The notes below the pieces were generated by a model, which worked only from the letters and a program-made list of their open reading frames with translations, made no database searches and was not told the DNA's origin. Below, one piece after another: positions 7,318-30,882 of a stretch of DNA of 64,000 bases (within the stretch, counting starts at the first letter, position 1; every line of letters starts with the position of its first letter). Both the position numbers and the translations under genes were made by a program. The DNA comes from Escherichia coli (GTDB lineage: Bacteria; Pseudomonadota; Gammaproteobacteria; Enterobacterales; Enterobacteriaceae). The stretch lies in the NCBI RefSeq assembly GCF_044324785.1, contig NZ_CP172127.1; one strand, given 5' to 3'.

Positions 7318-7344
7318 TTACGTGGTTTCCCGGCTGGTGACCAG

Positions 7345-8798: not shown

Positions 8799-8813
8799 TC
8801 CGGCGTTTCGGCA

Positions 8814-9626: not shown

Positions 9627-11063
9627 ATGTCAAACAACATTCGTATCGAAGAAGATCTGTTGGGTACCAGGGAAGTTCCAGCTGATGCCTACTATGGTGT
9701 TCACACTCTGAGAGCGATTGAAAACTTCTATATCAGCAACAACAAAATCAGTGATATTCCTGAATTTGTTCGCGGTATGGTAATGGTTAAAAAAGCCGCA
9801 GCTATGGCAAACAAAGAGCTGCAAACCATTCCTAAAAGTGTAGCGAATGCCATCATTGCCGCATGTGATGAAGTCCTGAACAACGGAAAATGCATGGATC
9901 AGTTCCCGGTAGACGTCTACCAGGGCGGCGCAGGTACTTCCGTAAACATGAACACCAACGAAGTGCTGGCCAATATCGGTCTGGAACTGATGGGTCACCA
10001 GAAAGGTGAATATCAGTACCTGAACCCGAACGACCATGTTAACAAATGTCAGTCCACTAACGACGCCTACCCGACCGGTTTCCGTATCGCTGTTTACTCT
10101 TCCCTGATTAAGCTGGTAGATGCGATTAACCAACTGCGTGAAGGCTTTGAACGTAAAGCTGTCGAATTCCAGGACATCCTGAAAATGGGTCGTACCCAGC
10201 TGCAGGACGCAGTACCGATGACCCTCGGTCAGGAATTCCGCGCTTTCAGCATCCTGCTGAAAGAAGAAGTGAAAAACATCCAACGTACCGCTGAACTGCT
10301 GCTGGAAGTTAACCTTGGCGCAACAGCAATCGGTACTGGTCTCAACACGCCGAAAGAGTACTCTCCGCTGGCAGTGAAAAAACTGGCTGAAGTCACTGGC
10401 TTCCCATGTGTACCGGCTGAAGACCTGATCGAAGCGACCTCTGACTGCGGCGCTTATGTAATGGTTCACGGCGCGCTGAAACGCCTGGCTGTGAAGATGT
10501 CCAAAATCTGTAACGACCTGCGCTTGCTCTCTTCTGGCCCACGTGCCGGCCTGAACGAGATCAACCTGCCGGAACTGCAGGCGGGCTCTTCCATCATGCC
10601 AGCTAAAGTAAACCCGGTTGTTCCGGAAGTGGTTAACCAGGTATGCTTCAAAGTCATCGGTAACGACACCACTGTTACCATGGCAGCAGAAGCAGGTCAG
10701 CTGCAGTTGAACGTTATGGAGCCGGTCATTGGCCAGGCTATGTTCGAATCCGTTCACATTCTGACCAACGCTTGCTACAACCTGCTGGAAAAATGCATTA
10801 ACGGCATCACTGCTAACAAAGAAGTGTGCGAAGGTTACGTTTACAACTCTATCGGTATCGTTACTTACTTGAACCCGTTCATCGGTCACCACAACGGTGA
10901 CATCGTGGGTAAAATCTGTGCCGAAACCGGTAAGAGTGTACGTGAAGTCGTTCTGGAACGCGGTCTGTTGACTGAAGCGGAACTTGACGATATTTTCTCC
11001 GTACAGAATCTGATGCACCCGGCTTACAAAGCAAAACGCTATACTGATGAAAGCGAACAGTAA
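9627..11063 (+). CDS. aspA: aspartate ammonia-lyase
   Basis: 478-aa product [34 protein letters not shown]..., fumarase/aspartase family. Confidence 0.95.
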
Positions 11064-11085
11064 TCGTACAGGGTAGTACAAATAA

Positions 11086-11115
11086 AGAAGGCACGTCAGA
11101 TGACGTGCCTTTTTT
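11086..11115 (+). terminator. rho-independent terminator after aspA
   Basis: GGCACGTCAgatGACGTGCC hairpin followed by TTTTTTCTT. Confidence 0.65.
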
Positions 11116-11180
11116 CTTGTGAGCAGTAACTTAAAAATAACAATCTAATATCAACTTGTTAAAAAACAAGGAAGGCTAAT

Positions 11181-12482
11181 ATGCTAGTTGTAGAACTCAT
11201 CATAGTTTTGCTGGCGATCTTCTTGGGCGCCAGATTGGGGGGAATAGGTATTGGTTTTGCAGGCGGATTGGGGGTGCTGGTTCTTGCCGCTATTGGCGTT
11301 AAACCCGGTAACATCCCGTTCGATGTCATTTCCATTATCATGGCGGTTATCGCCGCTATTTCTGCCATGCAGGTTGCTGGCGGTCTGGACTATCTGGTTC
11401 ATCAGACAGAAAAGCTGCTGCGCCGTAACCCGAAATACATCACGATCCTCGCGCCGATCGTGACCTATTTCCTGACAATCTTTGCTGGTACTGGCAACAT
11501 CTCTCTGGCGACACTGCCAGTTATCGCTGAAGTTGCGAAGGAACAAGGCGTTAAACCTTGCCGTCCGCTGTCTACTGCAGTGGTATCCGCGCAGATTGCG
11601 ATCACCGCATCGCCAATCTCAGCGGCAGTGGTTTACATGTCTTCCGTGATGGAAGGTCATGGCATCAGCTACCTCCATCTGCTCTCCGTGGTCATCCCGT
11701 CCACCCTGCTGGCGGTTCTGGTGATGTCCTTCCTGGTCACTATGCTGTTCAACTCCAAACTCTCTGACGATCCGATTTATCGCAAGCGTCTGGAAGAAGG
11801 CCTGGTTGAACTGCGCGGTGAAAAGCAGATTGAAATCAAATCCGGTGCAAAAACGTCCGTCTGGCTGTTCCTGCTGGGCGTAGTTGGCGTGGTTATCTAT
11901 GCAATCATCAACAGCCCAAGCATGGGTCTGGTTGAAAAACCGCTGATGAACACCACCAACGCAATCCTGATCATCATGCTCAGCGTTGCAACTCTGACCA
12001 CCGTTATCTGTAAAGTCGATACTGACAACATCCTCAACTCCAGCACCTTCAAAGCAGGTATGAGCGCCTGTATTTGTATCCTGGGTGTTGCGTGGCTGGG
12101 CGATACTTTCGTTTCCAACAATATCGACTGGATCAAAGATACCGCTGGTGAAGTGATTCAGGGTCATCCGTGGCTGCTGGCCGTCATCTTCTTCTTTGCT
12201 TCTGCTCTGCTGTACTCTCAGGCTGCAACCGCAAAAGCACTGATGCCGATGGCTCTGGCACTGAACGTTTCTCCTCTGACCGCTGTTGCTTCTTTCGCTG
12301 CGGTGTCTGGTCTGTTCATTCTGCCGACCTACCCGACGCTGGTTGCTGCGGTACAGATGGATGACACGGGTACTACCCGTATCGGTAAATTCGTCTTCAA
12401 CCATCCGTTCTTCATCCCGGGTACTCTGGGTGTTGCCCTGGCCGTTTGCTTCGGCTTCGTGCTGGGTAGCTTCATGCTGTAA
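11181..12482 (+). CDS. dcuA: anaerobic C4-dicarboxylate transporter DcuA
   Basis: 433-aa polytopic membrane protein; K-12 aspA-dcuA arrangement. Confidence 0.93.
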   Translation: MLVVELIIVLLAIFLGARLGGIGIGFAGGLGVLVLAAIGVKPGNIPFDVISIIMAVIAAISAMQVAGGLDYLVHQTEKLLRRNPKYITILAPIVTYFLTIFAGTGNISLATLPVIAEVAKEQGVKPCRPLSTAVVSAQIAITASPISAAVVYMSSVMEGHGISYLHLLSVVIPSTLLAVLVMSFLVTMLFNSKLSDDPIYRKRLEEGLVELRGEKQIEIKSGAKTSVWLFLLGVVGVVIYAIINSPSMGLVEKPLMNTTNAILIIMLSVATLTTVICKVDTDNILNSSTFKAGMSACICILGVAWLGDTFVSNNIDWIKDTAGEVIQGHPWLLAVIFFFASALLYSQAATAKALMPMALALNVSPLTAVASFAAVSGLFILPTYPTLVAAVQMDDTGTTRIGKFVFNHPFFIPGTLGVALAVCFGFVLGSFML

Positions 12483-12487
12483 TGACC

Positions 12488-12512
12488 AATCGCGGGGCGT
12501 TCACGCCCCGCT
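12488..12512 (+). terminator. rho-independent terminator after dcuA
   Basis: GCGGGGCGttcaCGCCCCGC hairpin followed by TTTCTTT. Confidence 0.6.
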
Positions 12513-12597
12513 TTCTTTCCCGCCGACTAACATCCTTCCCCCGTCCGTTGTATAGTGACCTCTCTCTTGCGGTTCCATCTGTTCTTGCGAGGTGTTT

Positions 12598-12936
12598 ATG
12601 CTTGATGAAAAAAGTTCGAATACCGCGTCTGTCGTGGTGCTATGTACGGCACCGGATGAAGCGACAGCCCAGGATTTAGCCGCCAAAGTGCTGGCGGAAA
12701 AACTGGCGGCCTGCGCGACCTTGATCCCCGGCGCTACCTCTCTCTATTACTGGGAAGGTAAGCTGGAGCAAGAATACGAAGTGCAGATGATTTTAAAAAC
12801 TACCGTATCTCACCAGCAGGCACTGCTGGAATGCCTGAAGTCTCATCATCCATACCAAACCCCGGAACTTCTGGTTTTACCTGTTACACACGGAGACACA
12901 GATTACCTCTCATGGCTCAACGCATCTTTACGCTGA
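12598..12936 (+). CDS. cutA: divalent-cation tolerance protein CutA
   Basis: 112-aa product [32 protein letters not shown]... Confidence 0.9.
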
Positions 12937-15327: not shown

Positions 15328-15403
15328 GCCCGGATAGCTCAGTCGGTAGAGCAGGGGATTGAAAATCCCCGTGTCCTTGGTTCGATTCCGAGTCCGGGCA
15401 CCA
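15328..15403 (+). tRNA. pheU: tRNA-Phe (GAA anticodon)
   Basis: exact 76-nt match to the E. coli tRNA-Phe sequence GCCCGGATAGCTCAGTCGGTAGAGCAGGGGATTGAAAATCCCC...GGGCACCA; K-12 position next to yjdC. Confidence 0.97.
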
Positions 15404-15579
15404 CTTTCACTTCCAGATTCATCTCCCGAACTCCACGAAACTCAAGTATAATCACATCGTTACAAGCAATCTGAACATCCTGAACTCCACCGAACTCTAC
15501 TGAACTCTCTCTCAATCAAGCGTTCATTGGGGGCACCGGTGGGGGCTCATTGTGTTCAGTCAGTTTCAGGAGCCCCCAT

Positions 15580-16764
15580 ATGGCACTTACAGCCAGACAG
15601 GTCGAAACAGCCAGACCTAAAGAAAAAGACTATAAACTCTCTGACGAACGTGGTTTATATCTGCTGGTAAAAACCACGGGTGCCCGCTACTGGCGGCTTA
15701 AATACCGGATAGCAGGAAAAGAGAAAAAACTGGCCCTCGGCGTCTATCCCGACGTCTCCCTTGCTGAAGCCAGAATCAAACGCGACGATGCCCGAAAAAT
15801 TATCTCCGAAGGTGGCGACCCGGGCGAAAAGAAGCGAAAGGAAAAACTCACTCAGAAAATCTCTGCCACCAATACGTTCCATGCCCTTGCTACGGAATGG
15901 CATCAGCATAAATCTTTGTCATGGTCTGAAAGTTACGCCAGAAGCGTACTGGAGGCTCTGGATAAAGATATTTTCCCGTATCTGGGCAAACGAAGCGTTA
16001 CTGATATCCTCCCGCTGGAAATGCTGGAAATTCTGCGCCGCATAGAAAAACGTGGCTCGCTGGAAAAACTTCGTAAGGTGCGTCAATACTGTAATCAGAT
16101 TTTTCGTTATGCCATCGCCACCGGACGAGCCACTGTCAATCCGGCATCTGAACTGACCAGTACGCTGGCGGCGCCAAAAGCTGCACATTTCCCCCACCTG
16201 AGAGCAGATGAGCTCCCTGTTTTTCTCCGGAAGCTCGCTGAATATCATGGCAGTCCTGTTACCCGCATGGCGACAAATCTGCTGCTTCTGACAGGCCTCA
16301 GAACGATTGAACTACGGTCCGCTGAATGGTCAGAAATTGATTTTGATAATGCCCTGTGGACAATCCCTGAAAGCCGCATGAAAATGCGACGTAAACATGT
16401 CGTACCACTGTCACGACAGGCCACTGACATTCTGCTGCAGCTCAAAACTTTCTCCGGACAATACCGGCTGGTTTTCCCGGGACGTTGTGATATCAACAAG
16501 CCAATGAGCGAAGCCAGCATCAATATGGTGCTCAAACGTATCGGTTACGATGGCAGGGCAACCGGTCATGGTTTTCGTCACACCATGAGTACCATTCTGC
16601 ACGAACAGGGCTTTAATTCTGCCTGGATTGAAATGCAGTTAGCTCATGTGGATAAAAATTCCATCAGGGGTACCTATAATCATGCCCTGTATCTCGATGG
16701 TCGCCGTGAAATGATGCAATGGTACGCTGACTACATTGATTCACTTTCCATCCAGGAGAGTTAA
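15580..16764 (+). CDS. P4-type tyrosine integrase of a pheU-inserted genomic island
   Basis: about 394 aa, MALTARQVETARPKEKDYKLSDERGLYLLVKTTGARYWRLKYRIAGKEKKLALGVYP..., with C-terminal catalytic region (HGFRHT...Y); located 177 bp after the tRNA 3' end. Confidence 0.88.
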   Translation: MALTARQVETARPKEKDYKLSDERGLYLLVKTTGARYWRLKYRIAGKEKKLALGVYPDVSLAEARIKRDDARKIISEGGDPGEKKRKEKLTQKISATNTFHALATEWHQHKSLSWSESYARSVLEALDKDIFPYLGKRSVTDILPLEMLEILRRIEKRGSLEKLRKVRQYCNQIFRYAIATGRATVNPASELTSTLAAPKAAHFPHLRADELPVFLRKLAEYHGSPVTRMATNLLLLTGLRTIELRSAEWSEIDFDNALWTIPESRMKMRRKHVVPLSRQATDILLQLKTFSGQYRLVFPGRCDINKPMSEASINMVLKRIGYDGRATGHGFRHTMSTILHEQGFNSAWIEMQLAHVDKNSIRGTYNHALYLDGRREMMQWYADYIDSLSIQES

Positions 16765-16849
16765 TTACACTTTGTCCTGAAATTATTCTCACAATCAATA
16801 ACCTTTCCCTCTGATCTTACAGATCAGAGGGATTCCGTTAACTTACAAT

Positions 16850-16889
16850 AAGTGATATTGGTTGTCTGGAGATTTAGGGGGACGGTCTA
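16850..16889. repeat. solo IS2 terminal inverted repeat (about 40 bp remnant)
   Basis: AAGTGATATTGGTTGTCTGGAGATTTAGGGGGACGGTCTA is near-identical to the IS2 end at 26363-26402, same orientation. Confidence 0.7.
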
Positions 16890-16913
16890 CTATAATAATT
16901 AGCAGGAGATAAT

Positions 16914-17924
16914 ATGTCACTTAAGGCGATTGCCACTGCACTCGGAGTTTCTGTCACCACTGTCAGTCGGGCTCTTGGAGGCTATGCAGATGTGTCAGCT
17001 TCCACCCGTGCACGGGTGGAAGCTGAAGCTCGTCGACGCGGTTACCGTCCTAATACTCAGGCAAGAAGACTCAAAACCGGTAAAACCGATGCTGTCGGTC
17101 TGGTTTATCCTGGACGTGATGTGCCATTTAACAGTGGTGTTTTTATGGATATGGTCAGTTGCATCAGCCGGGAACTTGCTCACCATGATATTGACTTACT
17201 ACTGATAGCTGATGATGAGCATGCCGATTGCCACAGCTATATGCGGCTTGTTGAAAGTCGCAGGGTTGATGCTCTCATCATTGCACACACTCTGGATGAC
17301 GATCCCCGTATCACACACCTTCATAAAGCAGGTATTCCATTTCTGGCTCTTGGTCGGGTACCATCTGGTCTGCCCTGTGCGTGGTTTGACTTTGATAATC
17401 ATGCCGGGACTGGACAGGCAACCCAGAAACTGATTGCTTTGGGACATAAACGTATTGCATTGTTGAGTGAAGACACTTCACATAGCTATGTTGTTGCAAG
17501 ACGTCAGGGATGGCTTGATGCACTGAATGAGCATGAACTGGAAGATACATGGCTGCGGCTGGTTTCTCCCACACGGCGAGCAGGATATCAGGCCGTGATG
17601 GAGTTAATGTCACTACCGATACCACCAACAGCTATTATTACTGACAATGACCTGAGTGGAGATGGTGCTGCCATGGCACTGCAGTTGAGCGGTCGTCTTT
17701 CAGGAAAAGATGCGGTATCTCTGGTTGTATATGATGGTTTGCCACAGGACAGTATTATTGAGCTGGATGTGGCTGCAGTTATTCAGTCAACACGAAGCCT
17801 CGTTGGTCGCCAGATTTCCGAGATGATATATCAGATAATTACTGATTCATCATCAAAACCACTACAGGTTGTCTGGAACCCGGTATTTTATCCGGGAAAG
17901 ACGATTCATCCTCCTTGCTCCTGA
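16914..17924 (+). CDS. rafR: LacI/GalR-family repressor of the raffinose operon
   Basis: 336-aa ORF with N-terminal HTH (LKAIATALGVSVTTVSRAL) and sugar-binding core; followed by operator palindromes and rafA. Confidence 0.8.
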   Translation: MSLKAIATALGVSVTTVSRALGGYADVSASTRARVEAEARRRGYRPNTQARRLKTGKTDAVGLVYPGRDVPFNSGVFMDMVSCISRELAHHDIDLLLIADDEHADCHSYMRLVESRRVDALIIAHTLDDDPRITHLHKAGIPFLALGRVPSGLPCAWFDFDNHAGTGQATQKLIALGHKRIALLSEDTSHSYVVARRQGWLDALNEHELEDTWLRLVSPTRRAGYQAVMELMSLPIPPTAIITDNDLSGDGAAMALQLSGRLSGKDAVSLVVYDGLPQDSIIELDVAAVIQSTRSLVGRQISEMIYQIITDSSSKPLQVVWNPVFYPGKTIHPPCS

Positions 17925-17944
17925 TTTTTTTATCCAGCTCACAT

Positions 17945-17983
17945 ATCCGAAACGTTTTGGTTGATACCCGAAACGTTTCGGAT
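17945..17983. promoter_or_regulatory. paired palindromic operators (RafR-type) in the rafA promoter
   Basis: two near-identical palindromes CCGAAACGTTTTGG (17947-17960) and CCGAAACGTTTCGG (17968-17981) between rafR and rafA. Confidence 0.7.
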
Positions 17984-18019
17984 CAACAGTAAGGCATCCC
18001 TGAGAAAGGAGAATGTCTT

Positions 18020-20146
18020 ATGGTTTCAAAGTACTGCAGACTGAGCAGTCCTCGCTCTGATTTAATTATTAAAACCCGTCCACATGCAGAAATTATCTGG
18101 TGGGGCTCTGCACTGAAACATTTCTCACCGGATGACTGTGCCAGCCTGGAAAGACCGGTTGCGAATGGTCGTCTGGATATTGATACGCCACTAACACTGA
18201 TGGCTGAAAATGCCCTGGGACTTTTTAGCTCTCCGGGACTGGAAGGACACAGGAATGGGCTGGATGCATCTCCTGTTTTTTATACAGTTGACGTGGAACA
18301 TACCGAAAACACTCTGAGACTTACCAGTGAAGATTCGGTAGCCGGCCTGCGTCTGGTCAGCGAGCTGGTGATGACGCCATCAGGAATTCTGAAAGTTCGT
18401 CATGCACTGACCAACCTCAGAGAGGGGGACTGGCAGATAAATCGTTTCGCCATCACTTTACCTTTAGCGGAACGTGCGGAAGAAGTCATGGCTTTTCACG
18501 GACGCTGGACTCGTGAATTTCAGCCGCACAGGGTACGTCTCACTCATGATGCTTTTGTTCTGGAAAATCGCAGAGGGCGGACATCTCATGAGCATTTTCC
18601 GGCGCTGATTGTCGGCACGCCAGGCTTCTCGGAACAACAGGGAGAGGTGTGGGCTGTGCATCTGGGGTGGAGTGGAAATCACCGCATGAGATGTGAGGCA
18701 AAAACTGACGGCAGGCGTTACGTTCAGGCTGAGGCTCTGTGGATGCCGGGTGAGAAGGCTCTCAGGAAGAATGAAACCCTGTACACCCCGTGGCTATATG
18801 CCTGCCACTCTGCGGATGGCCTGAATGGAATGAGTCAGCAATACCATCGTTTTTTGCGTGATGAAATTATCCGTTTCCCTGAGCAAAAACCCCGCCCTGT
18901 ACATCTCAATACCTGGGAAGGTATTTATTTCAATCACAATCCTGATTACATCATGCAGATGGCTGAGCGTGCAGCAGCACTGGGCGTTGAACGTTTCATT
19001 ATTGATGATGGCTGGTTTAAAGGACGTAACGATGACCGCGCGGCTCTGGGCGACTGGTATACCGATGAACAGAAATACCCGAACGGGCTGATGCCGGTTA
19101 TTAAACATGTGAAATCTCTCGGTATGGAATTTGGCATATGGGTTGAGCCGGAAATGATTAACCCGGATTCTGACCTGTTTCGTCTTCATCCTGACTGGGT
19201 ATTGTCAATGCCTGGATATTCCCAGCCAACCGGAAGATATCAGTATGTTCTTAACCTGAATATTCCAGAGGCCTTTGCTTACATTTATGAACGTTTCTTA
19301 TGGTTACTGGGAGAACATCCGGTTGATTATGTGAAATGGGACATGAATCGTGAGCTTGTACAGGCAGGGCATGAAGGCCGTGCGGCAGCAGATGCACAGA
19401 CCCGTCAGTTCTATCGATTGCTTGATCTCCTCCGTGAACGTTTTCCACATGTTGAGTTTGAGTCCTGTGCTTCCGGTGGGGGGCGTATTGACTTCGAAGT
19501 CCTGAAACGCACACACCGGTTCTGGGCATCTGACAATAATGATGCCCTGGAGCGCTGCACCATACAACGTGGCATGAGTTACTTTTTCCCTCCTGAGGTG
19601 ATGGGGGCGCATATTGGCCATCGCCGCTGCCATGCAACTTTCCGGCAGCACAGCATCGCTTTTCGTGGGCTGACGGCATTGTTCGGCCATATGGGGCTGG
19701 AGCTGGATCCGGTGGCCGCAGATGCGAAGGAATCTGACGGTTATCGCCGGTATGCCTTGCTCTATAAAGAATGGCGACAACTGATTCATACAGGAGTTCT
19801 CTGGCGTGTGGATATGCCAGATCCTTCGATACAGGTTCAGGGAGTCGTCAGCCCTGATCAGTCTCAGGCACTTTTTATGATCAGCCAGCTTGCAATGCCG
19901 GATTACACCTTACCAGGCATACTTCGTTTTCCCGGTCTGGCGGCGGAAGTGCGTTACCGGCTTCGGGTTATTGATCACCCGGACCTCCAGGTGGTTGGTG
20001 AAGGCGGTCATACCATGCGCAAATTACCTGTCTGGATGAATCAGAGCCTTGAGGCCAGTGGTGAATGGCTGGCACAGGGAGGGATTCAGCTCCCCGTACT
20101 GGATCCGGAGAGTGCGATTTTGATAGCACTTGAAAGAGCTGTGTGA
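18020..20146 (+). CDS. rafA: alpha-galactosidase (GH36), raffinose operon
   Basis: 708-aa ORF; gene order with a LacY-like permease and a GH32 invertase downstream. Confidence 0.85.
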   Translation: MVSKYCRLSSPRSDLIIKTRPHAEIIWWGSALKHFSPDDCASLERPVANGRLDIDTPLTLMAENALGLFSSPGLEGHRNGLDASPVFYTVDVEHTENTLRLTSEDSVAGLRLVSELVMTPSGILKVRHALTNLREGDWQINRFAITLPLAERAEEVMAFHGRWTREFQPHRVRLTHDAFVLENRRGRTSHEHFPALIVGTPGFSEQQGEVWAVHLGWSGNHRMRCEAKTDGRRYVQAEALWMPGEKALRKNETLYTPWLYACHSADGLNGMSQQYHRFLRDEIIRFPEQKPRPVHLNTWEGIYFNHNPDYIMQMAERAAALGVERFIIDDGWFKGRNDDRAALGDWYTDEQKYPNGLMPVIKHVKSLGMEFGIWVEPEMINPDSDLFRLHPDWVLSMPGYSQPTGRYQYVLNLNIPEAFAYIYERFLWLLGEHPVDYVKWDMNRELVQAGHEGRAAADAQTRQFYRLLDLLRERFPHVEFESCASGGGRIDFEVLKRTHRFWASDNNDALERCTIQRGMSYFFPPEVMGAHIGHRRCHATFRQHSIAFRGLTALFGHMGLELDPVAADAKESDGYRRYALLYKEWRQLIHTGVLWRVDMPDPSIQVQGVVSPDQSQALFMISQLAMPDYTLPGILRFPGLAAEVRYRLRVIDHPDLQVVGEGGHTMRKLPVWMNQSLEASGEWLAQGGIQLPVLDPESAILIALERAV

Positions 20147-20208
20147 AGAGAGGTACGGAGCCTCAGCTCCGTCCTGTTTCTCAATATTATCCCGTGAGGG
20201 TAAGAATA

Positions 20209-21486
20209 ATGAATTCTGCAAGTACGCATAAAAATCCCGATTTCTGGATTTTCGGTCTGTTCTTCTTTCTCTACTTTTTCATCATGGCAACCTGTTTTCC
20301 GTTTTTGCCTGTATGGCTGTCCGATGTGGTCGGACTGAGTAAAACGGATACAGGTATAGTCTTTTCATGTCTTTCTCTGTTTGCCATCAGTTTCCAGCCA
20401 TTGCTTGGGGTCATATCAGATCGCCTGGGACTGAAAAAAAACCTGATCTGGAGTATCAGCCTGTTACTTGTATTTTTCGCCCCCTTTTTTTTATATGTAT
20501 TTGCGCCCCTGCTGCGCTTCAATATCTGGGCAGGCGCACTGACTGGCGGTGTCTTTATTGGTTTTGTGTTTTCTGCAGGTGCCGGAGCTATTGAAGCTTA
20601 TATAGAGCGGGTCAGTCGCAGTCGTGGATTTGAATACGGTAAAGCGAGGATGTTCGGGTGTCTGGGCTGGGCGTTATGTGCGGCTATGGCTGGAATGCTT
20701 TTTAATGTCGATCCTTCTCTGGTTTTCTGGATGGGGTCAGTAAGCGCATTATTGTTGCTTCTTCTGTTGTTTCTGGCGCGCCCCAGTACCAGCCAGACGG
20801 CAATGGTTATGAATACACTGGGTGCCAATTCTTCCCTGATTTCGACCAGAATGGTCTTCAGCCTGTTTCGCATGCGTCAGATGTGGATGTTTGTTCTCTA
20901 CACGATTGGTGTGGCCTGTGTCTATGATGTATTTGATCAGCAGTTTGCCACATTTTTTCGTTCATTCTTTGACACTCCTCAGGCAGGAATAAAAGCATTC
21001 GGATTTGCTACCACTGCGGGGGAGATTTGTAATGCCATTATCATGTTCTGTACACCATGGATAATTCATCGCATTGGTGCCAAAAATACCCTGCTTGTTG
21101 CGGGGGGAATTATGACCATCCGCATTACCGGTTCTGCTTTTGCCACCACCGCGACAGAAGTGGTGATTCTGAAAATGCTTCACGCTCTTGAAGTTCCATT
21201 TTTGCTGGTTGGGGCGTTCAAATATATTACGGCAGTGTTTGACACCCGACTGTCAGCGACCGTTTATTTAATAGGTTTTCAGTTTTCCAAACAACTTGCT
21301 GCAATACTTCTCTCTACCTTTGCCGGCCACCTGTATGATCGTATGGGATTCCAGAATACGTATTTTGTGCTCGGGATGATTGCTCTGACTGTTACCGTGA
21401 TATCAGTTTTCACGCTGAGTTCTTCCCGCGGGAGCGTACACCCTTCTGTAGAAAAAGCCCCTGCAGCGCATTCGGAGATTAACTGA
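20209..21486 (+). CDS. rafB: raffinose permease (LacY-family MFS symporter)
   Basis: 425-aa product from MNSASTHKNPDFWIFGLFFFLYFFIMATCFPF...; RBS GAGGG upstream; overlaps the rafD start. Confidence 0.85.
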   Translation: MNSASTHKNPDFWIFGLFFFLYFFIMATCFPFLPVWLSDVVGLSKTDTGIVFSCLSLFAISFQPLLGVISDRLGLKKNLIWSISLLLVFFAPFFLYVFAPLLRFNIWAGALTGGVFIGFVFSAGAGAIEAYIERVSRSRGFEYGKARMFGCLGWALCAAMAGMLFNVDPSLVFWMGSVSALLLLLLLFLARPSTSQTAMVMNTLGANSSLISTRMVFSLFRMRQMWMFVLYTIGVACVYDVFDQQFATFFRSFFDTPQAGIKAFGFATTAGEICNAIIMFCTPWIIHRIGAKNTLLVAGGIMTIRITGSAFATTATEVVILKMLHALEVPFLLVGAFKYITAVFDTRLSATVYLIGFQFSKQLAAILLSTFAGHLYDRMGFQNTYFVLGMIALTVTVISVFTLSSSRGSVHPSVEKAPAAHSEIN

Positions 21487-22916
21487 TGAAACAGCGTCTT
21501 GCTTTGGCACAGTCTGCCCTTGAAAAACTTTGCGCACGTCGTGGTAATGCCTGGTACCCGATTTTTCATCTGGCTCCACCTGCCGGCTGGATGAATGATC
21601 CAAATGGCCTTATTTACTTCAATGGGCGTTACCATGCGTTCTTCCAGCATCATCCTGCAAGCGCATATCAGGGGCCAATGCACTGGGGGCATGCCACCAG
21701 TACCGACATGTTGCACTGGCAACACGAACCTGTCGCGCTGGCACCCGGAGATAAATATGATCGTGATGGCTGTTTTTCAGGGAGTGCCGTGGATGATGAT
21801 GGCGTGCTATCACTTATTTATACTGGTCATATTTGTCTCGATGATCGTGGTAATGACAGCATTATCCGTGAAGTACAGTGTCTGGCTACAAGTCATGATG
21901 GTATTCACTTTGAGAAGCAGGGCTGTGTGCTGACACCTCCGGAAGGTATAATGCATTTCCGTGATCCCAAAGTCTGGCACGAAGACGGCTCCTGGTGGAT
22001 GGTCATTGGTGCCCGGGACGCTTCTGACAATGGGCAAGTTCTGTTGTATCGCGGGACATCTTTGCGGGACTGGCATCTGGAGCATGTTCTTGCTCATTCC
22101 GCAGCCGGAAAAAGTTATATGTGGGAATGCCCCGATTTCTTCAGGTGTGGTAATTTTCACTGGCTGATGTTCTCACCACAGGGGATGCCCCCTTCCGGTT
22201 ATCGGTTCCGTAACCTTTTTCAGAGCGGTGTGTTGGCAGGGAGCTGGAAGCCTGGTTCTGTCTTTGCGCTGAAAGGGGGATTTGAAGAGCTGGATTATGG
22301 TCATGACTTTTATGCTCCACAGTCCATGCTGGCTGAGGACGGCAGGCGTATCATTATGGCATGGATGAATATGTGGGATTCACCCGTGCCCACCCGCAGT
22401 GAAGCCTGGGCAGGATGTCTGACGCTGCCCAGAGAGGTTTTTGAGCGCGATGGCCGGCTGTGCCAGCGACCTGTGCGTGAAGTCGAATCTCTGCGCAAAA
22501 AATGCCAGCCATTATCCCCTGTAAGGTTACAGGGTTTGCAATTACTGACCGAAAATGTACAGGCCGCAGAATTATTGGTGACGTGGCATACGGTTGACAG
22601 TCATGCGGAGCACTATGGCGTCCGCCTTGGAGACGGTCTGCGACTTTATGTGGATAATCAGGCCGGGCGACTGGTACTGTGGCGCTATTACCCTGAGGAA
22701 GGGTTGGATGGTTACCGCAGTGTTGAACTTCCTGATACAGAATATCTGACTCTTCGTATTTTCTTGGATCGTTCATCTGTTGAAGTGTTTGTTAACGATG
22801 GTGAGGCAACCTTATCAAGTCGTATTTATCCGCAAGCGGACTCGAGACAATTATCGTTATATGCCGCTCATGGCGATGCGATATTAACTGATGGCACTTT
22901 ATGGATGCTGACCTGA
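21486..22916 (+). CDS. rafD: raffinose invertase / sucrose-6-phosphate hydrolase-like (GH32)
   Basis: 476-aa ORF with GH32 motifs (WMNDPNGL, FRDPKV, WECPD). Confidence 0.85.
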   Translation: MKQRLALAQSALEKLCARRGNAWYPIFHLAPPAGWMNDPNGLIYFNGRYHAFFQHHPASAYQGPMHWGHATSTDMLHWQHEPVALAPGDKYDRDGCFSGSAVDDDGVLSLIYTGHICLDDRGNDSIIREVQCLATSHDGIHFEKQGCVLTPPEGIMHFRDPKVWHEDGSWWMVIGARDASDNGQVLLYRGTSLRDWHLEHVLAHSAAGKSYMWECPDFFRCGNFHWLMFSPQGMPPSGYRFRNLFQSGVLAGSWKPGSVFALKGGFEELDYGHDFYAPQSMLAEDGRRIIMAWMNMWDSPVPTRSEAWAGCLTLPREVFERDGRLCQRPVREVESLRKKCQPLSPVRLQGLQLLTENVQAAELLVTWHTVDSHAEHYGVRLGDGLRLYVDNQAGRLVLWRYYPEEGLDGYRSVELPDTEYLTLRIFLDRSSVEVFVNDGEATLSSRIYPQADSRQLSLYAAHGDAILTDGTLWMLT

Positions 22917-23110
22917 GACATATCGATATCAGTATTTTTTCTGACATTATCTGTCATTACTTTGCCAGTACACATTAATTATCTTTGCTGTGTGCTTTTG
23001 GTAATGTGTTGCGATTATATATACCAGTCTGGTGAAGAATATGAATGGTATTTTGTGTTGATACAGAGAATATAAGAGTACCCACATTTGTTTTTATTTA
23101 AGGGGGTAAA

Positions 23111-24505
23111 ATGAATAAGTTACTTTTGGGTTTATCTCTTTTTTTATTACTGGAATACAATGCGTGTGCAGCAAAAACAGGGGGGCTAACGCTTGAACAA
23201 AGAATGGCATTGCTGGAAGAACGCCTGGAAGCTGCAGAAAAAAGGGCGGAAAAAGCAGAAAGAATGTTAAAGAGTTTTGATATAGAACAACATTCTGAAA
23301 TACGTCAAATTAGTTCAGAGCAGAATAAAAAAGATGCTAACAGCTATGCAGTAGTTGAGTCAACAAAAGAAAAAACATCTTCTCCAGGTTTTCTGCTCTC
23401 TGGTTACAATGATTTGAAGTTTTATGGTGATGTGGAGTTTAATATAGATGCTGCCAGTAAACCCGGTCAGTTAGTAATGATAAGTTCCGGGGCGAACAGT
23501 GAGTCAGTGAATGAACGGTGGGACCTTAATGGCCGTATTCTATTAGGTTTTGACGGTACCCGTAAGCTTGATAATGGTTATTTCGCTGGATTTTCAGCAC
23601 AACCACTGGCGGATATGCACGGTTCAGTGAATATTGATGATGCATTATTCTTTTTTGGAAAAGATGACGAGTGGAAAGTGAAAGTCGGTCGTTTTGAAGC
23701 TTACGATATGTTCCCTCTAAATCAGGATACTTTCATTGAGTATTCCGGTAATACAGCTAATGATATTTATGCTGATGGCCGTGGTTATATCTATATGATG
23801 AAAGAGGGACGCGGTCGTTCTGACGCTGGTGGTAATTTCCTCATCAGTAAACAACTCGATAACTGGTATTTTGAGTTAAACACGTTACTTGAAGACGGAA
23901 CATCTTTATATAATAACGGTAATTATCATGGACGATATATGGAGCAGCAGAAAAATGTCGCTTATCTGCGCCCGGTAATTGCCTGGTCGCCAACGGAAGA
24001 ATTCACAGTCTCCGCAGCGATGGAAGCGAACGTGGTAAAAAATGCTTATGGCTATACCGATAATAAGGGGAATTTTGTCGATCAGTCCAATCGTTCCGGT
24101 TATGGTATTAGCATGACATGGAACGGTCTGAAAACAGATCCGGAAAATGGCATCGTGGTTACTCTTAATACCGCCTATTTGGATGCCAGTAATGAGAAAG
24201 ATTTCACTGCCAGTATTAATGCTCTGTGGAAACGTTTCGAACTGGGTTATATCTACGCACATAATAAGATTGATGAATTTAGTGGTGTCGTGTGTAATAA
24301 TGGTTGCTGGATTGATGGTGAAGGAATATACAACATTCACACCATTCATGCATCTTATCAGTTTGCTAATGTGATGGATATGGAGAACTTTAATATTTAC
24401 CTCGGGGCTTATTACTCAATTCTGGATAGTAACTGTAGATATAGTAATTGTGACATTACCGATGATCGTTACGGTGCCCGATTACGTTTCAAATACTTTT
24501 TTTGA
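23111..24505 (+). CDS. rafY: raffinose glycoporin (outer membrane)
   Basis: 464-aa ORF with signal peptide and aromatic-rich C-terminus ending in F, typical of outer-membrane beta-barrels; position after rafD. Confidence 0.7.
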   Translation: MNKLLLGLSLFLLLEYNACAAKTGGLTLEQRMALLEERLEAAEKRAEKAERMLKSFDIEQHSEIRQISSEQNKKDANSYAVVESTKEKTSSPGFLLSGYNDLKFYGDVEFNIDAASKPGQLVMISSGANSESVNERWDLNGRILLGFDGTRKLDNGYFAGFSAQPLADMHGSVNIDDALFFFGKDDEWKVKVGRFEAYDMFPLNQDTFIEYSGNTANDIYADGRGYIYMMKEGRGRSDAGGNFLISKQLDNWYFELNTLLEDGTSLYNNGNYHGRYMEQQKNVAYLRPVIAWSPTEEFTVSAAMEANVVKNAYGYTDNKGNFVDQSNRSGYGISMTWNGLKTDPENGIVVTLNTAYLDASNEKDFTASINALWKRFELGYIYAHNKIDEFSGVVCNNGCWIDGEGIYNIHTIHASYQFANVMDMENFNIYLGAYYSILDSNCRYSNCDITDDRYGARLRFKYFF

Positions 24506-25005
24506 TGCATAGTAACAAAGTATTGTTCCACACTTACATTAACGCGTTTTTCGGGCGCGTCATCAGCGATGCATACGAATGATCGCAGTCTGCCAATGGT
24601 CGATTTATCTTGGTTGCGCAGGGGCGAGCACCGGGCAGGTACCGGCGGCTGACTCTGAAGCTCTGAGTCGGGTAATTGCGTCAGGTCACGAAGGACTGAC
24701 ACGGGTATTGGTGGCAGGTGATGAAGTACTGAGTGTGGTAATTTCGGGGATGCAATGCAGGAGCTGAGTCAGGTTTGCACTGAGCTGAGGACCCGTAGCG
24801 AGCGGGTTCCTGCTATTTTTCGGTGTCAGGGGCGCAAGTCCCGACGTCGGGACTTGCCGGGAGATTGTCAGGTCATTGACCGGGTGTGAGCGGCTCGACG
24901 TAAGCGGTAGATATGCCCAATTCCCCCCGATAAATTCATTACCAAACACATTATTCAATTTGTTTTTATTTTTCCGCTTTCAGTCATTATCGCTATCGCT
25001 TCGTC

Positions 25006-25071
25006 GGTAATGACTCCAACTTATTGATAGTGTTTTATGTTCAGATAATGCCCGATGACTTTGTCATGCAG
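25006..25071. mobile_element. IS1 terminal fragment (66 bp) truncated by IS2
   Basis: GGTAATGACTCCAACTTATTGATAGTGTTTTATGTTCAGATAATGCCCGATGACTTTGTCATGCAG is identical to the start of the complete IS1 at 27354. Confidence 0.85.
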
Positions 25072-25082
25072 TGGATTTGCCC

Positions 25083-25988
25083 CTATATTTCCAGACACCT
25101 GTTATCACTTAACCCATTACTGGTCCGCTGCCGCAGATATTCCCGTGGCGAGCGATAACCCAGCGCACTATGCGGATGCCATTCGTTATAATGCTCGAAC
25201 GCCTCTGCAAGGTTCTTTGCTGCCGTTAACCCGTCTGGTTTGGGCATGATACTGATGTAGTCACGCTTTATCGTTTTCACGAAGCTCTCTGCTATTCCGT
25301 TACTCTCCGGACTCCGCACCGCCGTGTTCTTCGGTTCAAGTCCCAACATCCGGGCGAACTGGCGTGTTTCATTAGCCCGGTAGCATGAACCATTATCCGT
25401 CAGCCACTCCACTGGAGACGACGGAAGATCGTTGCCGAAGCGGCGTTCCACCGCTCCTGGCATGACGTCCTGTACTGTTTCACTGTTGAAGCCGCCGGTA
25501 GTGACCGCCCAGTGCAGTGCCTCACGATCACAGCAGTCCAGCGCGAACGTGACACGCAGTCTCTCTCCGTTATCACAGCAGAACTCGAACCCGTCAGAGC
25601 ACCATCGCTGATTGCTTTCTTTCACGGCCACTCTGCCAGTATGTGCCCGTTTCGATGGCGGTACAGCGGTTTTTCGCTCAAGCAACAGCGCATTCTGGCG
25701 CATGATCCGGTAAACACGTTTGGCATTGATCGCAGGCATACCATCAAGTTCGGCCTGTCTGCGAAGCAGCGCCCATACCCGACGATAACCATACGTGGGC
25801 AGCTCTCCGATAACATGGTGTATACGGAGAAGCACATCCGTATCATCTGAGTGACGGCTGCGGCGACCATCTTTCCAGTCATCGGTTCGTCTGAGAATTA
25901 CGTGCAACTGCGCACGCGACACCCGGAGACAACGGCTGACTAAGCTTACTCCCCATCCCCGGGCAATAAGGGCGCGTGCGCTATCCAC
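25083..25988 (-). CDS. insD: IS2 transposase InsD (OrfB)
   Basis: 301-aa ORF with DDE integrase-core features, overlapping insC. Confidence 0.9.
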
Positions 25989-26311
25989 TTTTTTGCACGC
26001 CCGTATTCAACGGCTTCTTTAAGGAGTTCATTTTCCATCGTTTTTTTGCCGAGCAGGCGCTGGAGTTCTTTAATCTGCTTCATGGCAGCAGCAAGTTCAG
26101 AGGCAGGAACGACCTGCTCTCCTGCGGCCACAGCAGTAAGACTTCCCTCCTGGTATTGCTTGCGCCAGAGAAATAACTGGCTGGCTGCCACACCGTGTTG
26201 CCGGGCAACAAGGGAGACCGTCATTCCCGGTTCAAAACTCTGCTGAACAATAGCGATCTTTTCCTGTGTAGTACGCCGTCTGCGTTTCTCCGGTCCTAAG
26301 ACATCAATCAT
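25946..26311 (-). CDS. insC: IS2 transposase InsC (OrfA)
   Basis: [56 protein letters not shown]...; the ORF-track start at 26356 is an extension. Confidence 0.9.
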
Positions 26312-26562
26312 CTGCTCTCCAATGACTAGTCTAAAAACTAGTATTAAGACTATCACTTATTTAAGTGATATTGGTTGTCTGGAGATTCATGGGGCCAGTC
26401 TAGCAGATTATGGTGCGCAGTTATACAACAGCAGTAATGAGGAGTCTACTATTTCTCTTGTTATGCCAGATGCAATTGAATGGAACGGAAAGAATACGCC
26501 AAGACGGCAATACATGATAAAATATATTGCCGTATTTAAATATTAAAATTTATTTTTGTAGA

Positions 26563-26970
26563 TCATCTGAATTTTCGGTGACCTTCAAGTTTTATATCGT
26601 TCATTTTATCCAGAGACTCACGTAATGATTCTATATTCCCGTCCTCAACTTTCTTTTTTGCAATATTGATTTCATGTTGTAGTTTTTTTAACTCTTCCTT
26701 ATAACTATCTACAGAAACTTTATCATTAACATCTATCTTTTCAGGAATAATATTCATAGAAGAATCTACAGATTTATCCATCATTTCAAGAGCATTTAAT
26801 AGTGATGATTTATCATTGGAAGATTGTAGAATACTCATACTTTTGGCAAGAGACTGCATGTTTTTATCCAGGCCGGAAGCCAAAGATACGTTGCTGAGAG
26901 ATAAAAAAATAGCTAGTACAGCACCTGAGAAAAATACCTTTTGTTTTTTCATTAATATATTCCTGTTCAA
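26563..26970 (-). CDS. cytochrome b562-family periplasmic protein (putative)
   Basis: 135-aa AT-rich ORF with signal peptide; pattern LDKNMQSL...GHRKFR parallels cytochrome b562 (LEDNMETL...YHQKYR) including candidate Met and His haem ligands. Confidence 0.45.
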   Translation of the reverse strand: MNRNILMKKQKVFFSGAVLAIFLSLSNVSLASGLDKNMQSLAKSMSILQSSNDKSSLLNALEMMDKSVDSSMNIIPEKIDVNDKVSVDSYKEELKKLQHEINIAKKKVEDGNIESLRESLDKMNDIKLEGHRKFR

Positions 26971-27368
26971 AGTTGATTATAGTTATGTCAATTTAAGTTT
27001 ATTATTATGATTTTTTATTTTTGTACTATGAATCTCCTGTATGCTTATATGTGCAGAAAATCTCATTTTATCAAGAAGAATATCAAATTTTCTCCGATAC
27101 TTCTACATACTCCATCATTCATGCTCCTTTTATCCGTGCACCGTAAAACCCCGTCCTTCAGCGGGGGATATAAGGCGCTGTTTTCCACCTAACCAGGTGT
27201 CTGCTGCTATTCAATGTATTGGCGGATGACGGATGCCGCCCGTTGAAGCAGGACCCCTCGTCCTTAGGGCGTGGAGGATGTCAAAATGAAAACTTGTGGT
27301 ATGAATCAATCCATTCATCATCCTTTCGGATCATTGCATTCAGTATAACGCTGGGTAATGACTCCAAC

Positions 27369-27872
27369 TTATTGATAGTGTTTTATGTTCAGATAATGCC
27401 CGATGACTTTGTCATGCAGCTCCACCGATTTTGAGAACGACAGCGACTTCCGTCCCAGCCGTGCCAGGTGCTGCCTCAGATTCAGGTTATGCCGCTCAAT
27501 TCGCTGCGTATATCGCTTGCTGATTACGTGCAGCTTTCCCTTCAGGCGGGATTCATACAGCGGCCAGCCATCCGTCATCCATATCACCACGTCAAAGGGT
27601 GACAGCAGGCTCATAAGACGCCCCAGCGTCGCCATAGTGCGTTCACCGAATACGTGCGCAACAACCGTCTTCCGGAGACTGTCATACGCGTAAAACAGCC
27701 AGCGCTGGCGCGATTTAGCCCCGACATAGCCCCACTGTTCGTCCATTTCCGCGCAGACGATGACGTCACTGCCCGGCTGTATGCGCGAGGTTACCGACTG
27801 CGGCCTGAGTTTTTTAAGTGACGTAAAATCGTGTTGAGGCCAACGCCCATAATGCGTGCACTGGCACGACAT
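27369..27872 (-). CDS. insB: IS1 transposase InsB
   Basis: 167-aa ORF inside IS1. Confidence 0.9.
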
Positions 27873-28066
27873 CCGACGCCATTCATGGCCATATCAATGA
27901 TTTTCTGGTGCGTACCGGGTTGAGAGGCGGTGTAAGTGAACTGTAGTTGCCATGTTTTACGGCAATGAGAGCAGAGATAGCGCTGATGTCCGGCAGTGCT
28001 TTTGCCGTTACGCACCACGCCTTCAGGAGCGGAGCAGGAAGGACATCTGATGGAAATGGAAGCCAC
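27791..28066 (-). CDS. insA: IS1 protein InsA
   Basis: 91-aa [46 protein letters not shown]... with zinc-finger cysteines. Confidence 0.9.
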
Positions 28067-28329
28067 GCAAGCACCTTAAAATCACCATCATACACTAAAT
28101 CAGTAAGTTGGCACCATTACCTGACCAAGCTTCCTCTATTGCGGCACCTGATTGCATCAATATCGAAAGTGATAAGATCCTCTCACTAGCAGGGCATGAC
28201 AAGTGTAACTGCTGATTTGTTAGCCTGTTTTAAGTTTTTTAAGATCAATTATTTCTCATTTTTTGACTTTATTGCTAGCCGTGAAAATGCAAAGCCTATA
28301 GGATACAAAAATTACAATTTGTAGGTTTT

Positions 28330-28836
28330 GTGAGTCATATGAAGGCAACCAATATAGACCCTCAACTGCTTGAAAAAGCCACGAGTATCTTTGCTGAGTT
28401 GGGCTTACCTATTGAGCAGGCTATTAACGTCTTTTTAGCTAAATCCGTTCAAGCCAAAGGTTTTCCGTTTTCTGTTGCTCTTGAAAATGAAGTAGAGACA
28501 CGGGAAGTTGCACAAACGCAACACAATATCAGCAATGCAGAGATAACCGAAGCTATCCAAGACTTGGTTGAACATGCTCTACCACTGAGTGAAATAGAAA
28601 ACCTCACGCAGCTAACCTATTGTCGCAACATTTTTGGGTTGTCATTCCCCGTGCTCAAACTGGCTAAATCATCACGGCCAGAAGACATTCGCAGTGCAGC
28701 CAAAGATGCCAAAGAGCGAAACCGCTACTCCACCACTAAAGTGGCCCAGCGAGATGAAAAAACCTATGTTATTTGCACCCAATGGACCGACAGACATCGT
28801 TCTGCATTTTGCCGTTGGCAAGCCATCTTTAGCTAG
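28330..28836 (+). CDS. RelB/DinJ-like antitoxin-domain protein with C-terminal extension
   Basis: 168-aa ORF; N-terminal 50 aa resemble the DinJ/RelB ribbon-helix-helix (ATSIFAELGLPIEQAINVFLAKSVQAKGFPF); no toxin ORF adjacent. Confidence 0.5.
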   Translation: MSHMKATNIDPQLLEKATSIFAELGLPIEQAINVFLAKSVQAKGFPFSVALENEVETREVAQTQHNISNAEITEAIQDLVEHALPLSEIENLTQLTYCRNIFGLSFPVLKLAKSSRPEDIRSAAKDAKERNRYSTTKVAQRDEKTYVICTQWTDRHRSAFCRWQAIFS

Positions 28837-28902
28837 AACGCAAAATAATAACCAAACAATACACTGATTTTTTAACGATTTAACTTCATTTAGGTAGTAT
28901 CA

Positions 28903-30882
28903 ATGAACTTACAAGACAAAGAACAAAGCGCCAAACTCTCCAGTGCTATTTGGCGTATGGCAGATGATTTATGGGGTGATTTCAAACACACCGATTTTGC
29001 GCGGATTATCCTGCCATTTTTGCTACTGCGTCGTATTGAATGCGTGTTAGAACCCACCCGTGAGGAAGTTCGTAAGTTCTATCTGGCCGAAAAACAATCC
29101 GGCATAGACCTTGGTTTAGTGTTGCCAGAAATTGCGGGATTCGCCTTTTACAACACCAGTGAATATAGCCTAGAAACCTTAGGCGCGTCAGACACCGGCG
29201 ACAACCTAGAACACTACATCAGCCAGTTCAGCAAAAACGTTCGTACCATCTTTGATGAGTTTAAATTTGGTCAAACCATAGAAGATCTGGAAAAAGCCAA
29301 GTTGCTGTATCGCATGGTAAACCATTTTGCCAACCTCGACTTGCATCCTGATGTAGTGTCTGACCGCGTATTATCAGATGCTTATGAAGAGCTGATTCTA
29401 AAGTTCGCCAGTTCGGTTAATGAAAAGGCCGGGGAATTTATGACCCCGCGTGATGCCGTGCGTCTTGCCACCAAACTGGTGCTGGCGGCGGATGAAGATA
29501 TCTTTAGTGAAAAGGGTGTGATCCGCACCATCTATGACCCAACCTGTGGCACGGGCGGTTTCCTTTCCGATGCCATTAGCCAAATTGAAGAAATGGGCAG
29601 CAGCGCTAAAGTCGTGCCTTTTGGTCAAGAGCTCGACCCCGCGACCCATGCCATGGCGCTGACCAATATGATGATCCGCGGTTTTGATGCCAATAACATC
29701 AAGCAAGGCAACACCTTATCAGACGATCAGTTACGTGCCGACAAGTTTCACTACGGCCTTGCCAACCCGCCATTTGGCATTAAGTGGGAAAAAGCCAAGA
29801 AAGAAGTAGAACGTGAGCACAAACAGCTCAAATACGCCGGACGCTTTGGGCCAGGCCTGCCGAGTATTTCTGATGGTTCAATGCTGTTTTTACTGCACTT
29901 GGTATCAAAAATGGAAACGCCGGAAAATGGTGGTGGCCGAGTGGGTATAGTCCTTTCTGGCTCGCCACTGTTTAATGGCGATGCAGGCTCAGGCCCATCA
30001 GAAATCCGCCGTTGGCTGCTAGAACAAGACTTAGTCGAAGCGATTGTTGCCCTGCCAACCGATATGTTCTTCAACACCGGCATTGGCACCTACATCTGGA
30101 TTTTGACTAACCATAAAGAGCCAAGACGCAAGAATCAGGTGCAACTGATTAACTTGGCAGATATTTGGACTCCCATGCGTAAATCGCAAGGCGATAAGCG
30201 CAAGTACCTGAGTGATGAACAGATTGACGATATTGTCCGTGCGTACGATGGCTTTGAAGCCAGTGACAACTGTAAGATCTTCCAGACTACTGATTTTGCC
30301 TACCGTAAAGTCACCATTCAGCGTCCACTGCGTGCCAAACTAGATATTACCGCTGCGGGCATTGCTGCATTTGTGCAGCAAGATACGTTTAAAAAACTCA
30401 AACCAGAGCAACAAGCGGCATGGGTACAATACCTCACCGATAACCTTGGCCTTCAGCCTTATGAATGGGCACGTTTGGCGGTTAAGAAGAATAACAATAA
30501 GGGTGACTTTGGTAAGTGCTCAAAAGCACTGGCTACGGCCTTAACTGCGCACTTTGTAAAAATTGATCCGCAATTTGAGCCTGCACTGGATGAAAAAGGC
30601 CAAGTGATCGCCGACCCTAAACTCAAAGACACCGAAAGCATTCCTTTTGACCGCGACGTTGAAGATTACTTCGCACAAGAGGTGCTGCCACATGTACCGG
30701 ATGCCTTTATTGATCACTCAGTGCGTGATGAAAAAGACGGCGAAGTGGGCATTGTCGGTTATGAAATTAACTTTAACCGCTATTTCTACCAATACGTGCC
30801 ACCACGCGAGTTGAGTGTGATTGATCGTGAGCTAAAAGCATGTGAAGCGCGCATTCAGGCTCTGCTGAATGAGGTGGCGTAA
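28903..30882 (+). CDS. hsdM: type I restriction-modification system, DNA methyltransferase subunit
   Basis: 659-aa ORF with AdoMet motif DPTCGTGGFL and catalytic NPPFG; TAATG overlap with hsdS. Confidence 0.9.
   Translation: MNLQDKEQSAKLSSAIWRMADDLWGDFKHTDFARIILPFLLLRRIECVLEPTREEVRKFYLAEKQSGIDLGLVLPEIAGFAFYNTSEYSLETLGASDTGDNLEHYISQFSKNVRTIFDEFKFGQTIEDLEKAKLLYRMVNHFANLDLHPDVVSDRVLSDAYEELILKFASSVNEKAGEFMTPRDAVRLATKLVLAADEDIFSEKGVIRTIYDPTCGTGGFLSDAISQIEEMGSSAKVVPFGQELDPATHAMALTNMMIRGFDANNIKQGNTLSDDQLRADKFHYGLANPPFGIKWEKAKKEVEREHKQLKYAGRFGPGLPSISDGSMLFLLHLVSKMETPENGGGRVGIVLSGSPLFNGDAGSGPSEIRRWLLEQDLVEAIVALPTDMFFNTGIGTYIWILTNHKEPRRKNQVQLINLADIWTPMRKSQGDKRKYLSDEQIDDIVRAYDGFEASDNCKIFQTTDFAYRKVTIQRPLRAKLDITAAGIAAFVQQDTFKKLKPEQQAAWVQYLTDNLGLQPYEWARLAVKKNNNKGDFGKCSKALATALTAHFVKIDPQFEPALDEKGQVIADPKLKDTESIPFDRDVEDYFAQEVLPHVPDAFIDHSVRDEKDGEVGIVGYEINFNRYFYQYVPPRELSVIDRELKACEARIQALLNEVA

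Follow-up and report, generated by a model that had tools for sequence, protein, structure and literature searches.

The minus-strand coding sequence at 26563..26952 of the window, a term used here for the whole analysed stretch of 64,000 nucleotides, is identified by sequence comparison and structure prediction as a real gene, intact and encoding a small member of the cytochrome b562 family with a four-helix-bundle fold. Sequence relationships place the gene in a plasmid-borne b562 branch and not in the chromosomal CybC lineage, and genome comparisons indicate that the segment carrying it normally resides on ColV-type plasmids and reached its present island by IS2/IS1-mediated rearrangement. 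Most probably, the product is an exported haem protein of this plasmid branch of the b562 family, which would serve as a soluble carrier of electrons or would hold haem and whose gene was borne into the island by IS elements.

The identity of the gene is not new, as RefSeq already names the identical protein cytochrome b562. The database entry is ordinary in that its automatic annotation is correct and the gene belongs to the accessory genes already known from ColV-type plasmids. Cytochrome b562 is among the best-studied model haem proteins and has been in use for decades, and to our knowledge no physiological role has been established for it. Since the nearest relatives of the window gene are found repeatedly behind genes for exported catalase-peroxidases (katP, and katY in Yersinia), a concrete hypothesis on a partner becomes testable. 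This recurring link of catalase-peroxidase and b562 constitutes a modest lead on the role of b562, and one that is not a property of the window itself. In addition, virulence plasmids of avian and extra-intestinal E. coli carry a solo copy, which shows that the protein is also kept without the partner, and models of its function have to explain this.

Coding sequence, predicted fold and relation to CybC

The gene and its immediate surroundings comprise the following features:

26563..26952, minus strand: coding sequence of the b562-family paralogue (ORF list, RefSeq, Pfam PF07361, fold and dN/dS)
26878..26952, minus strand: Sec-type signal peptide region, residues 1-25, with cleavage at SLA/SG (sequence, CybC alignment and pLDDT)
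26857..26859, minus strand: codon of Met32 (mature Met7), predicted axial haem ligand, invariant and aligned with CybC Met7
26578..26580, minus strand: codon of His125 (mature His100), predicted axial haem ligand, invariant and aligned with CybC His102
26961..26964, minus strand: Shine-Dalgarno motif AGGA, 8 nt before the ATG and retained by both the 72% and the 66% allele
26976..26981, minus strand: candidate -10 hexamer TATAAT with no good -35 element, read from the sequence
26504..26533, minus strand: terminator-like hairpin with a 12-bp stem and a weak U tail, about 30 nt past the stop codon

The coding sequence of 390 nt specifies a precursor of 129 amino acids with a mature domain of 104 amino acids. 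The original prediction had given the gene the range of the minus-strand ORF 26563..26970, which is present in the ORF list of the window and opens at TTG. While this ORF is real, its start is not conserved: the TTG at 26970 is replaced by TCG or CTG in the 72% and 66% alleles (percentages denote protein-level identity), whereas both alleles keep the ATG at 26952 together with the AGGA upstream of it. Because AGGA stands at the right spacing and is conserved along with the ATG, in contrast to the TTG, translation probably starts from the ATG at 26952. The coding sequence annotated by RefSeq is identical (26563-26952, product WP_029490539.1).

The signal peptide claimed at the outset is borne out by the N-terminal sequence MKKQKVFFSGAVLAIFLSLSNVSLA|SG, in which a basic n-region (MKKQK), a hydrophobic core and a c-region with the S-L-A cleavage motif can be read, and by the alignment of these regions and of the SLA|SG site with their counterparts in E. 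coli CybC. Moreover, pLDDT is low at residues 1-22 of the AlphaFold model. The b562-family product is thus presumably exported to the periplasm by Sec and cleaved after Ala25.

Assignment to the b562 family is provided by Pfam PF07361 (Cytochrom_B562), which scores 55.7 bits against a cut-off of 30 and in which profile positions 2-102 of 102 are matched by residues 28-129, while sequence matches of the protein in the PDB consist of soluble cytochrome b562 only. The AlphaFold model, for which a 26-sequence family alignment including b562 family members served as input, predicts helices at residues 24-44, 48-66, 78-103 and 107-128 with pLDDT above 90 across most of the mature domain, and these form the up-down-up-down four-helix bundle by which the b562 family is defined. 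In a Foldseek comparison with the PDB, the top 50 matches were all b562 or b562 fusion proteins, and superposition on solved b562 structures yielded a TM score of 0.90 and an rmsd of 1.3-1.5 Å over 104 residues. Hence, similarity to b562, which had beforehand been made the deciding check on the original prediction, was found at the level of both profile and structure, and the four-helix bundle proposed there reappears in the predicted model as well as in its top structural matches.

Among the 26 family members aligned, the only invariant columns are those of the Met ligand, the His ligand and a proline aligned with CybC Pro45, and nearly invariant columns correspond to L10, A29, L30, M33, F61 and L68 of CybC. 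Met32 and His125 align with the haem ligands Met7 and His102 of CybC, in line with the Met and His that had been proposed to match the haem ligands of b562. In addition, cleavage after Ala25 puts the Met at mature residue 7, exactly its position in CybC. Taken together, ligand conservation, fold and selection support a functional b562-type protein for which haem binding is predicted.

The similarity to CybC itself (PDB 256B, PF07361) encompasses a signal peptide whose cleavage site lies at the aligned position, a mature domain close to 105 residues in length, the four-helix bundle at the TM score given above, the Met7 and His ligands, the loop proline and a C-terminal H-x-K-[FY]-R motif. On the other hand, the window protein is two residues shorter in the loop between helices 2 and 3, and its gene has 31.5% G+C and resides on plasmids and islands, unlike the chromosomal cybC locus. 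The NCBIfam model of the CybC equivalog, NF011632, scores 66 bits, which is below its cut-off of 130, and identity to CybC amounts to 17% in the mature domain. On account of both values, the window protein is regarded as a paralogue and not as an orthologue of CybC, in agreement with the divergence that had been noted earlier.

This divergence could also be taken to mean that the b562 fold was kept and haem was lost, which would leave a haem-free four-helix protein of the periplasm, engaged for example in metal or protein binding. Apart from the low identity and the missed equivalog cut-off, such a reading could draw on the replacement of haem-adjacent aromatic residues of CybC (Tyr101 by Gly, Phe65 by Leu) and on the fact that four-helix bundles are a common scaffold. 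Nevertheless, it is very improbable, since the axial ligands and one proline are the only side chains that are invariant family-wide, the clade of the window protein included, and such conservation is hard to explain without haem ligation; the preserved distance of Met7 from the predicted cleavage site argues in the same direction.

Beyond CybC, a HMMER search of 1.84 billion representative proteins returned 30 relatives at an E-value of at most 0.001, with a single full-length protein above 40% identity (43%) and the others at 25-34%. Neither this search nor a scan of 100,044 species-representative genomes with the clade alignment identified a donor lineage. The latter yielded five tiny contigs only (L018-L022), which are most likely mis-binned or contaminant because they are 96-99.8% identical to katP-b562 DNA from pO157-type plasmids of E. 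coli; the assemblies they come from are labelled as Lachnospiraceae MAGs, Acinetobacter idrijaensis and Terrisporobacter mayombei.

Plasmid carriage and route into the island

A region of 751 bp around the gene is present at an identity of at least 99% in 138 of 5,426 complete E. coli genomes, where 128 of its locations are on plasmids, mostly conjugative ones of IncF/ColV type, and 19 on chromosomes; in each case the gene is intact and annotated as "cytochrome b562". All of the 85 matching plasmids in PLSDB are conjugative, their hosts being mostly poultry and human isolates. On pAPEC-O2-211A-ColV, b562 is located 433 bp downstream of a LysR gene, itself the last member of a cluster with genes for cytosine permease, carbamate kinase, FdrA and DUF1116. 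The earlier statement that the gene has no operon partners is consequently true of the island copy, whereas the ColV copies lie at the said distance from the LysR gene. No operon partner is conserved across the allele neighbourhoods, as the ColV allele is accompanied by the LysR gene and the metabolic cluster, the 66% allele by PhoX and an autotransporter, and the 72% allele by SSB, PerC, ProQ and YebF.

Several further observations concern these plasmid neighbourhoods. The block of the 66% allele on IncF-type plasmids, comprising a PhoX-family phosphatase gene, a small ORF, b562 and the gene for an autotransporter of 1165 amino acids, is the same in four independent contigs (L003-L006, around 4821-12616). 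Distant solo b562 genes also occur on conjugative elements (L011, 5001-5384; L012, 5001-5390): one is situated in an F-like leading region between a traM-adjacent transglycosylase gene and psiA/psiB/ssb, and the second adjoins TraG and TraU genes. On pAPEC-O2-211A-ColV, paralogous DUF2877-FdrA-DUF1116 clusters stand on both sides of b562 (L002, 231-4004 and 16556-20491), one featuring carbamate kinase and cytosine permease genes and the other an ankyrin-repeat gene and its own LysR gene. Upstream of b562, a G+C-rich, hairpin-rich repeat of 137 bp was observed (window 27149-27285; L002 21436-21571), which is unannotated, has no match in Rfam and is found only in the 138 genomes with the b562 segment, where a plasmid usually has two copies in direct orientation. 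Those of pAPEC-O2-211A-ColV bracket a cluster of about 8.7 kb with genes for a cysteine hydrolase, fdrA, arcC, cytosine permease and LysR.

In the window, the gene is enclosed by mobile elements:

26403..27353: plasmid-derived segment of 951 bp between the IS elements, 98.5% identical to pAPEC-O2-211A-ColV
25072..26402, minus strand: complete IS2 of 1331 bp, no 5-bp target duplication
27354..28121, minus strand: complete IS1 of 768 bp, no 9-bp target duplication
25006..25071: 66-bp IS1 end fragment, which abuts IS2 and is identical to 27354-27419

As had been proposed, the gene is thus flanked by IS2 and IS1, and it is the sole gene of the 951-bp segment. The junction of IS2 and b562 is identical, to the same base, on pAPEC-O2-211A-ColV, where the IS2 copy is truncated. 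On the other side, IS1 sits where the plasmid sequence would run into the LysR gene, about 400 bp upstream of b562. The 66-bp IS1 end shares the orientation of the complete IS1 some 2.3 kb away. Due to the missing target duplications and the presence of this IS1 end beyond IS2, it is concluded that IS-mediated recombination and not a series of simple insertions produced the arrangement. The exact IS2-b562-IS1 structure was encountered in 20 genomes, in all of which the ORF is intact and 99.8-100% identical. A composite transposon formed by IS1 was considered and rejected, in that the left copy is only a 66-bp end interrupted by IS2 and no duplication is shared by the sequences on the outer sides, which read CGCTTCGTC and TGACCAAGC.

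In the chromosome of strain 1517k, which the window matches, the region constitutes an island adjoining tRNA-Phe and comprises, in this order, an integrase gene, a raffinose-type cluster, the IS elements with b562, an antitoxin-like gene and a type I restriction-modification system. With 31.5% G+C against 49.9% for the whole window, the coding sequence is as AT-rich as originally described. This composition, the carriage on conjugative IncF/ColV plasmids and the location in a tRNA-Phe island all speak for the horizontal acquisition that had been suggested.

According to the annotation of 1517k, the left part of the island (window about 15328-24505) carries tRNA-Phe, a tyrosine integrase gene and the raffinose-type cluster, the latter consisting of genes for a regulator, an alpha-galactosidase, an MFS permease, a GH32 hydrolase and a carbohydrate porin. 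At 28338-28835, an unusually long antitoxin gene of the RelB/DinJ family (about 165 amino acids) lies directly upstream of the type I restriction-modification system, whose hsdM begins at 28903, and no annotated toxin gene adjoins it. A defence role of the b562 gene by virtue of its restriction-modification neighbour was dismissed, as a PADLOC scan assigned no family at an E-value of at most 0.1.

Expression signals and selection

The stretch in common with the 72% allele extends from 26501 to 27049 and comprises the coding sequence with some 100 bp before and some 60 bp after it, which implies that the b562 gene moves as a self-contained unit. The terminator-like hairpin at its downstream end has a minimum free energy of -16.2 kcal/mol (z = -3.2), and its stem features a compensatory change in the 72% allele (ACGGCAAT/ATTGCCGT versus ACGGCAAA/TTTGCCGT). 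Upstream of the gene, the candidate -10 hexamer reads GATAAT in the 72% allele. Promoter-like sites number three in the segment compared to 4.4 expected from shuffled sequences, and none of them is conserved among the alleles. Since CybC of Yersinia pestis is listed as Fur-regulated and induced by iron starvation, a Fur box was sought upstream, where the best match of 13/19 is reached by 21% of random sequences. An Rfam scan of 24000-29000 gave nothing relevant with respect to structured RNA, its one sub-threshold miRNA match being due to chance. On the basis of these signals, expression of the window gene is plausible.

Comparison of clade alleles that are 66-72% identical gives dN/dS values of 0.16-0.28, with many synonymous and few non-synonymous differences, and at this depth the alleles are, by sequence, under purifying selection. 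The window and ColV alleles are separated by three non-synonymous and no synonymous changes. Moreover, frameshifted or truncated alleles are present in databases (P0031, P0038, P0034, P0035 and P0053), from which it follows that the b562 gene is dispensable in some hosts.

Such features raise the question of whether the island copy is a silent passenger, namely a trapped AT-rich plasmid fragment that is probably silenced by H-NS, decays and makes no contribution. AT-rich DNA at a G+C content like that of the gene is a typical H-NS target, and a convincing promoter was not found in the segment. In addition, the plasmid context breaks off at IS1, about 400 bp upstream, within a rearranged region devoid of target duplications, recent alleles differ by non-synonymous changes only, and disrupted alleles do exist. 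On the contrary, the ORF is intact and nearly identical throughout the 20 genomes that share the IS2-b562-IS1 structure, the roughly 100 bp upstream, the Shine-Dalgarno motif and the terminator common with the 72% allele all fall inside the retained segment, and deeper comparisons reveal purifying selection. A silent passenger is thus judged unlikely, and the reading of the gene as one for an exported b562-type haem protein is preferred.

katP-linked relatives and proposed function

The nearest relatives of the window gene are b562 genes located directly 3' of katP, the gene for a periplasmic catalase-peroxidase, on plasmids of the pO157 type. Identity between the window clade and these katP-linked b562 proteins is 47-50%, with 47-49% in the mature domain, and both form a joint clade in 197 of 200 bootstraps of a neighbour-joining tree. 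In the plasmid collection, 87 records contain a window-type gene (at least 60% identity), and another 494 contain a b562 gene of about 50% identity downstream of katP. In three independent lineages (P0060 in L009, the pO157 type in L010 and P0075 in L017), 29-42 bp separate a katP-type gene from the start of b562, and the upstream gene encodes a KatG-type enzyme of about 737 amino acids with a signal peptide. Within a sample of 11 neighbourhoods covering the b562 family, eight are without an adjacent catalase-peroxidase gene, and two of these eight are the solo b562 genes on conjugative elements mentioned above.

Searches by tblastn with KatP found no match in the window, in the matching chromosome stretch or at the sampled ColV locus, nor at the loci of the 66% and 72% alleles. 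The possibility that the window gene is itself a katP-linked b562 gene by position was accordingly discarded, there being no katP-type gene upstream. The window gene resembles its counterpart on pO157, L7018, in length, AT-richness and plasmid carriage in E. coli, but it stands alone, whereas genes of the L7018 type have katP 29-42 bp upstream with an intercistronic hairpin. The product of L7018, listed as a putative member of the cytochrome b562 family, was detected at the protein level, 6.3-fold higher in the piglet gut (PMC3686733).

An analogous order is known from Y. pestis, where katY-cybC-cybB constitutes an operon verified by RT-PCR (PMC2231364) and CybC is a periplasmic protein that is up 4.7-fold under iron starvation (PMC2835676). 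The gene for a periplasmic catalase-peroxidase is followed there by a b562 gene, the order also seen in the sister group of the window gene, and in Y. pestis the two are co-transcribed. The Y. pestis operon differs in being chromosomal and in including cybB, which encodes the membrane cytochrome b561, and the likeness described here is one of gene order. Based on the katP-b562 neighbourhoods and the literature, the ancestor of the clade may reasonably be proposed to have supplied electrons or haem to exported catalase-peroxidases. No functional study of the plasmid gene emerged from a literature search on b562 in connection with ColV, APEC or katP.

In the preferred reading, the b562 precursor would be exported by Sec and the mature protein would bind one non-covalent haem b, acting in the periplasm as a soluble one-electron carrier or possibly as a haem holder. 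The ancestral partner was probably a periplasmic catalase-peroxidase, none of which is encoded in the window. Rearrangement by IS2 and IS1 into the tRNA-Phe island would have kept the ribosome-binding site, a possible promoter and the terminator hairpin.

A more specific view would be that the plasmid b562 clade, like CybC of Yersinia, is a dedicated periplasmic partner of exported catalase-peroxidases, from which the solo copy has become detached. In this case, b562 would donate electrons to the peroxidase cycle of the catalase-peroxidase or, alternatively, hand haem b to an enzyme that acquires its haem after Sec export, and the solo copy of ColV plasmids and the island would serve another periplasmic acceptor or buffer haem in extra-intestinal E. 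coli. The repeated katP-b562 order and the Y. pestis operon are in favour of this view, and the prevalence of family contexts lacking an adjacent catalase-peroxidase gene weighs against it. Although dedicated partnership is considered rather improbable, it would, if true, represent the first physiological role for cytochrome b562.

Two features of the katP-linked loci were observed besides. In L010, the signal-peptide region of the pO157-type b562 gene loses its frame at a stretch of five G, and one added G would restore the full precursor, of which RefSeq annotates a signal-less form of 106 amino acids only. Furthermore, a G+C-rich hairpin is present between katP and b562 (L010, 8279-8400; L009, 7962-8001), and its stem shows compensatory differences between the L010 and L009 lineages, with GAGGGAGG..CCTCCCTC compared to CAGGGGGAG..CTCCCCCTG.
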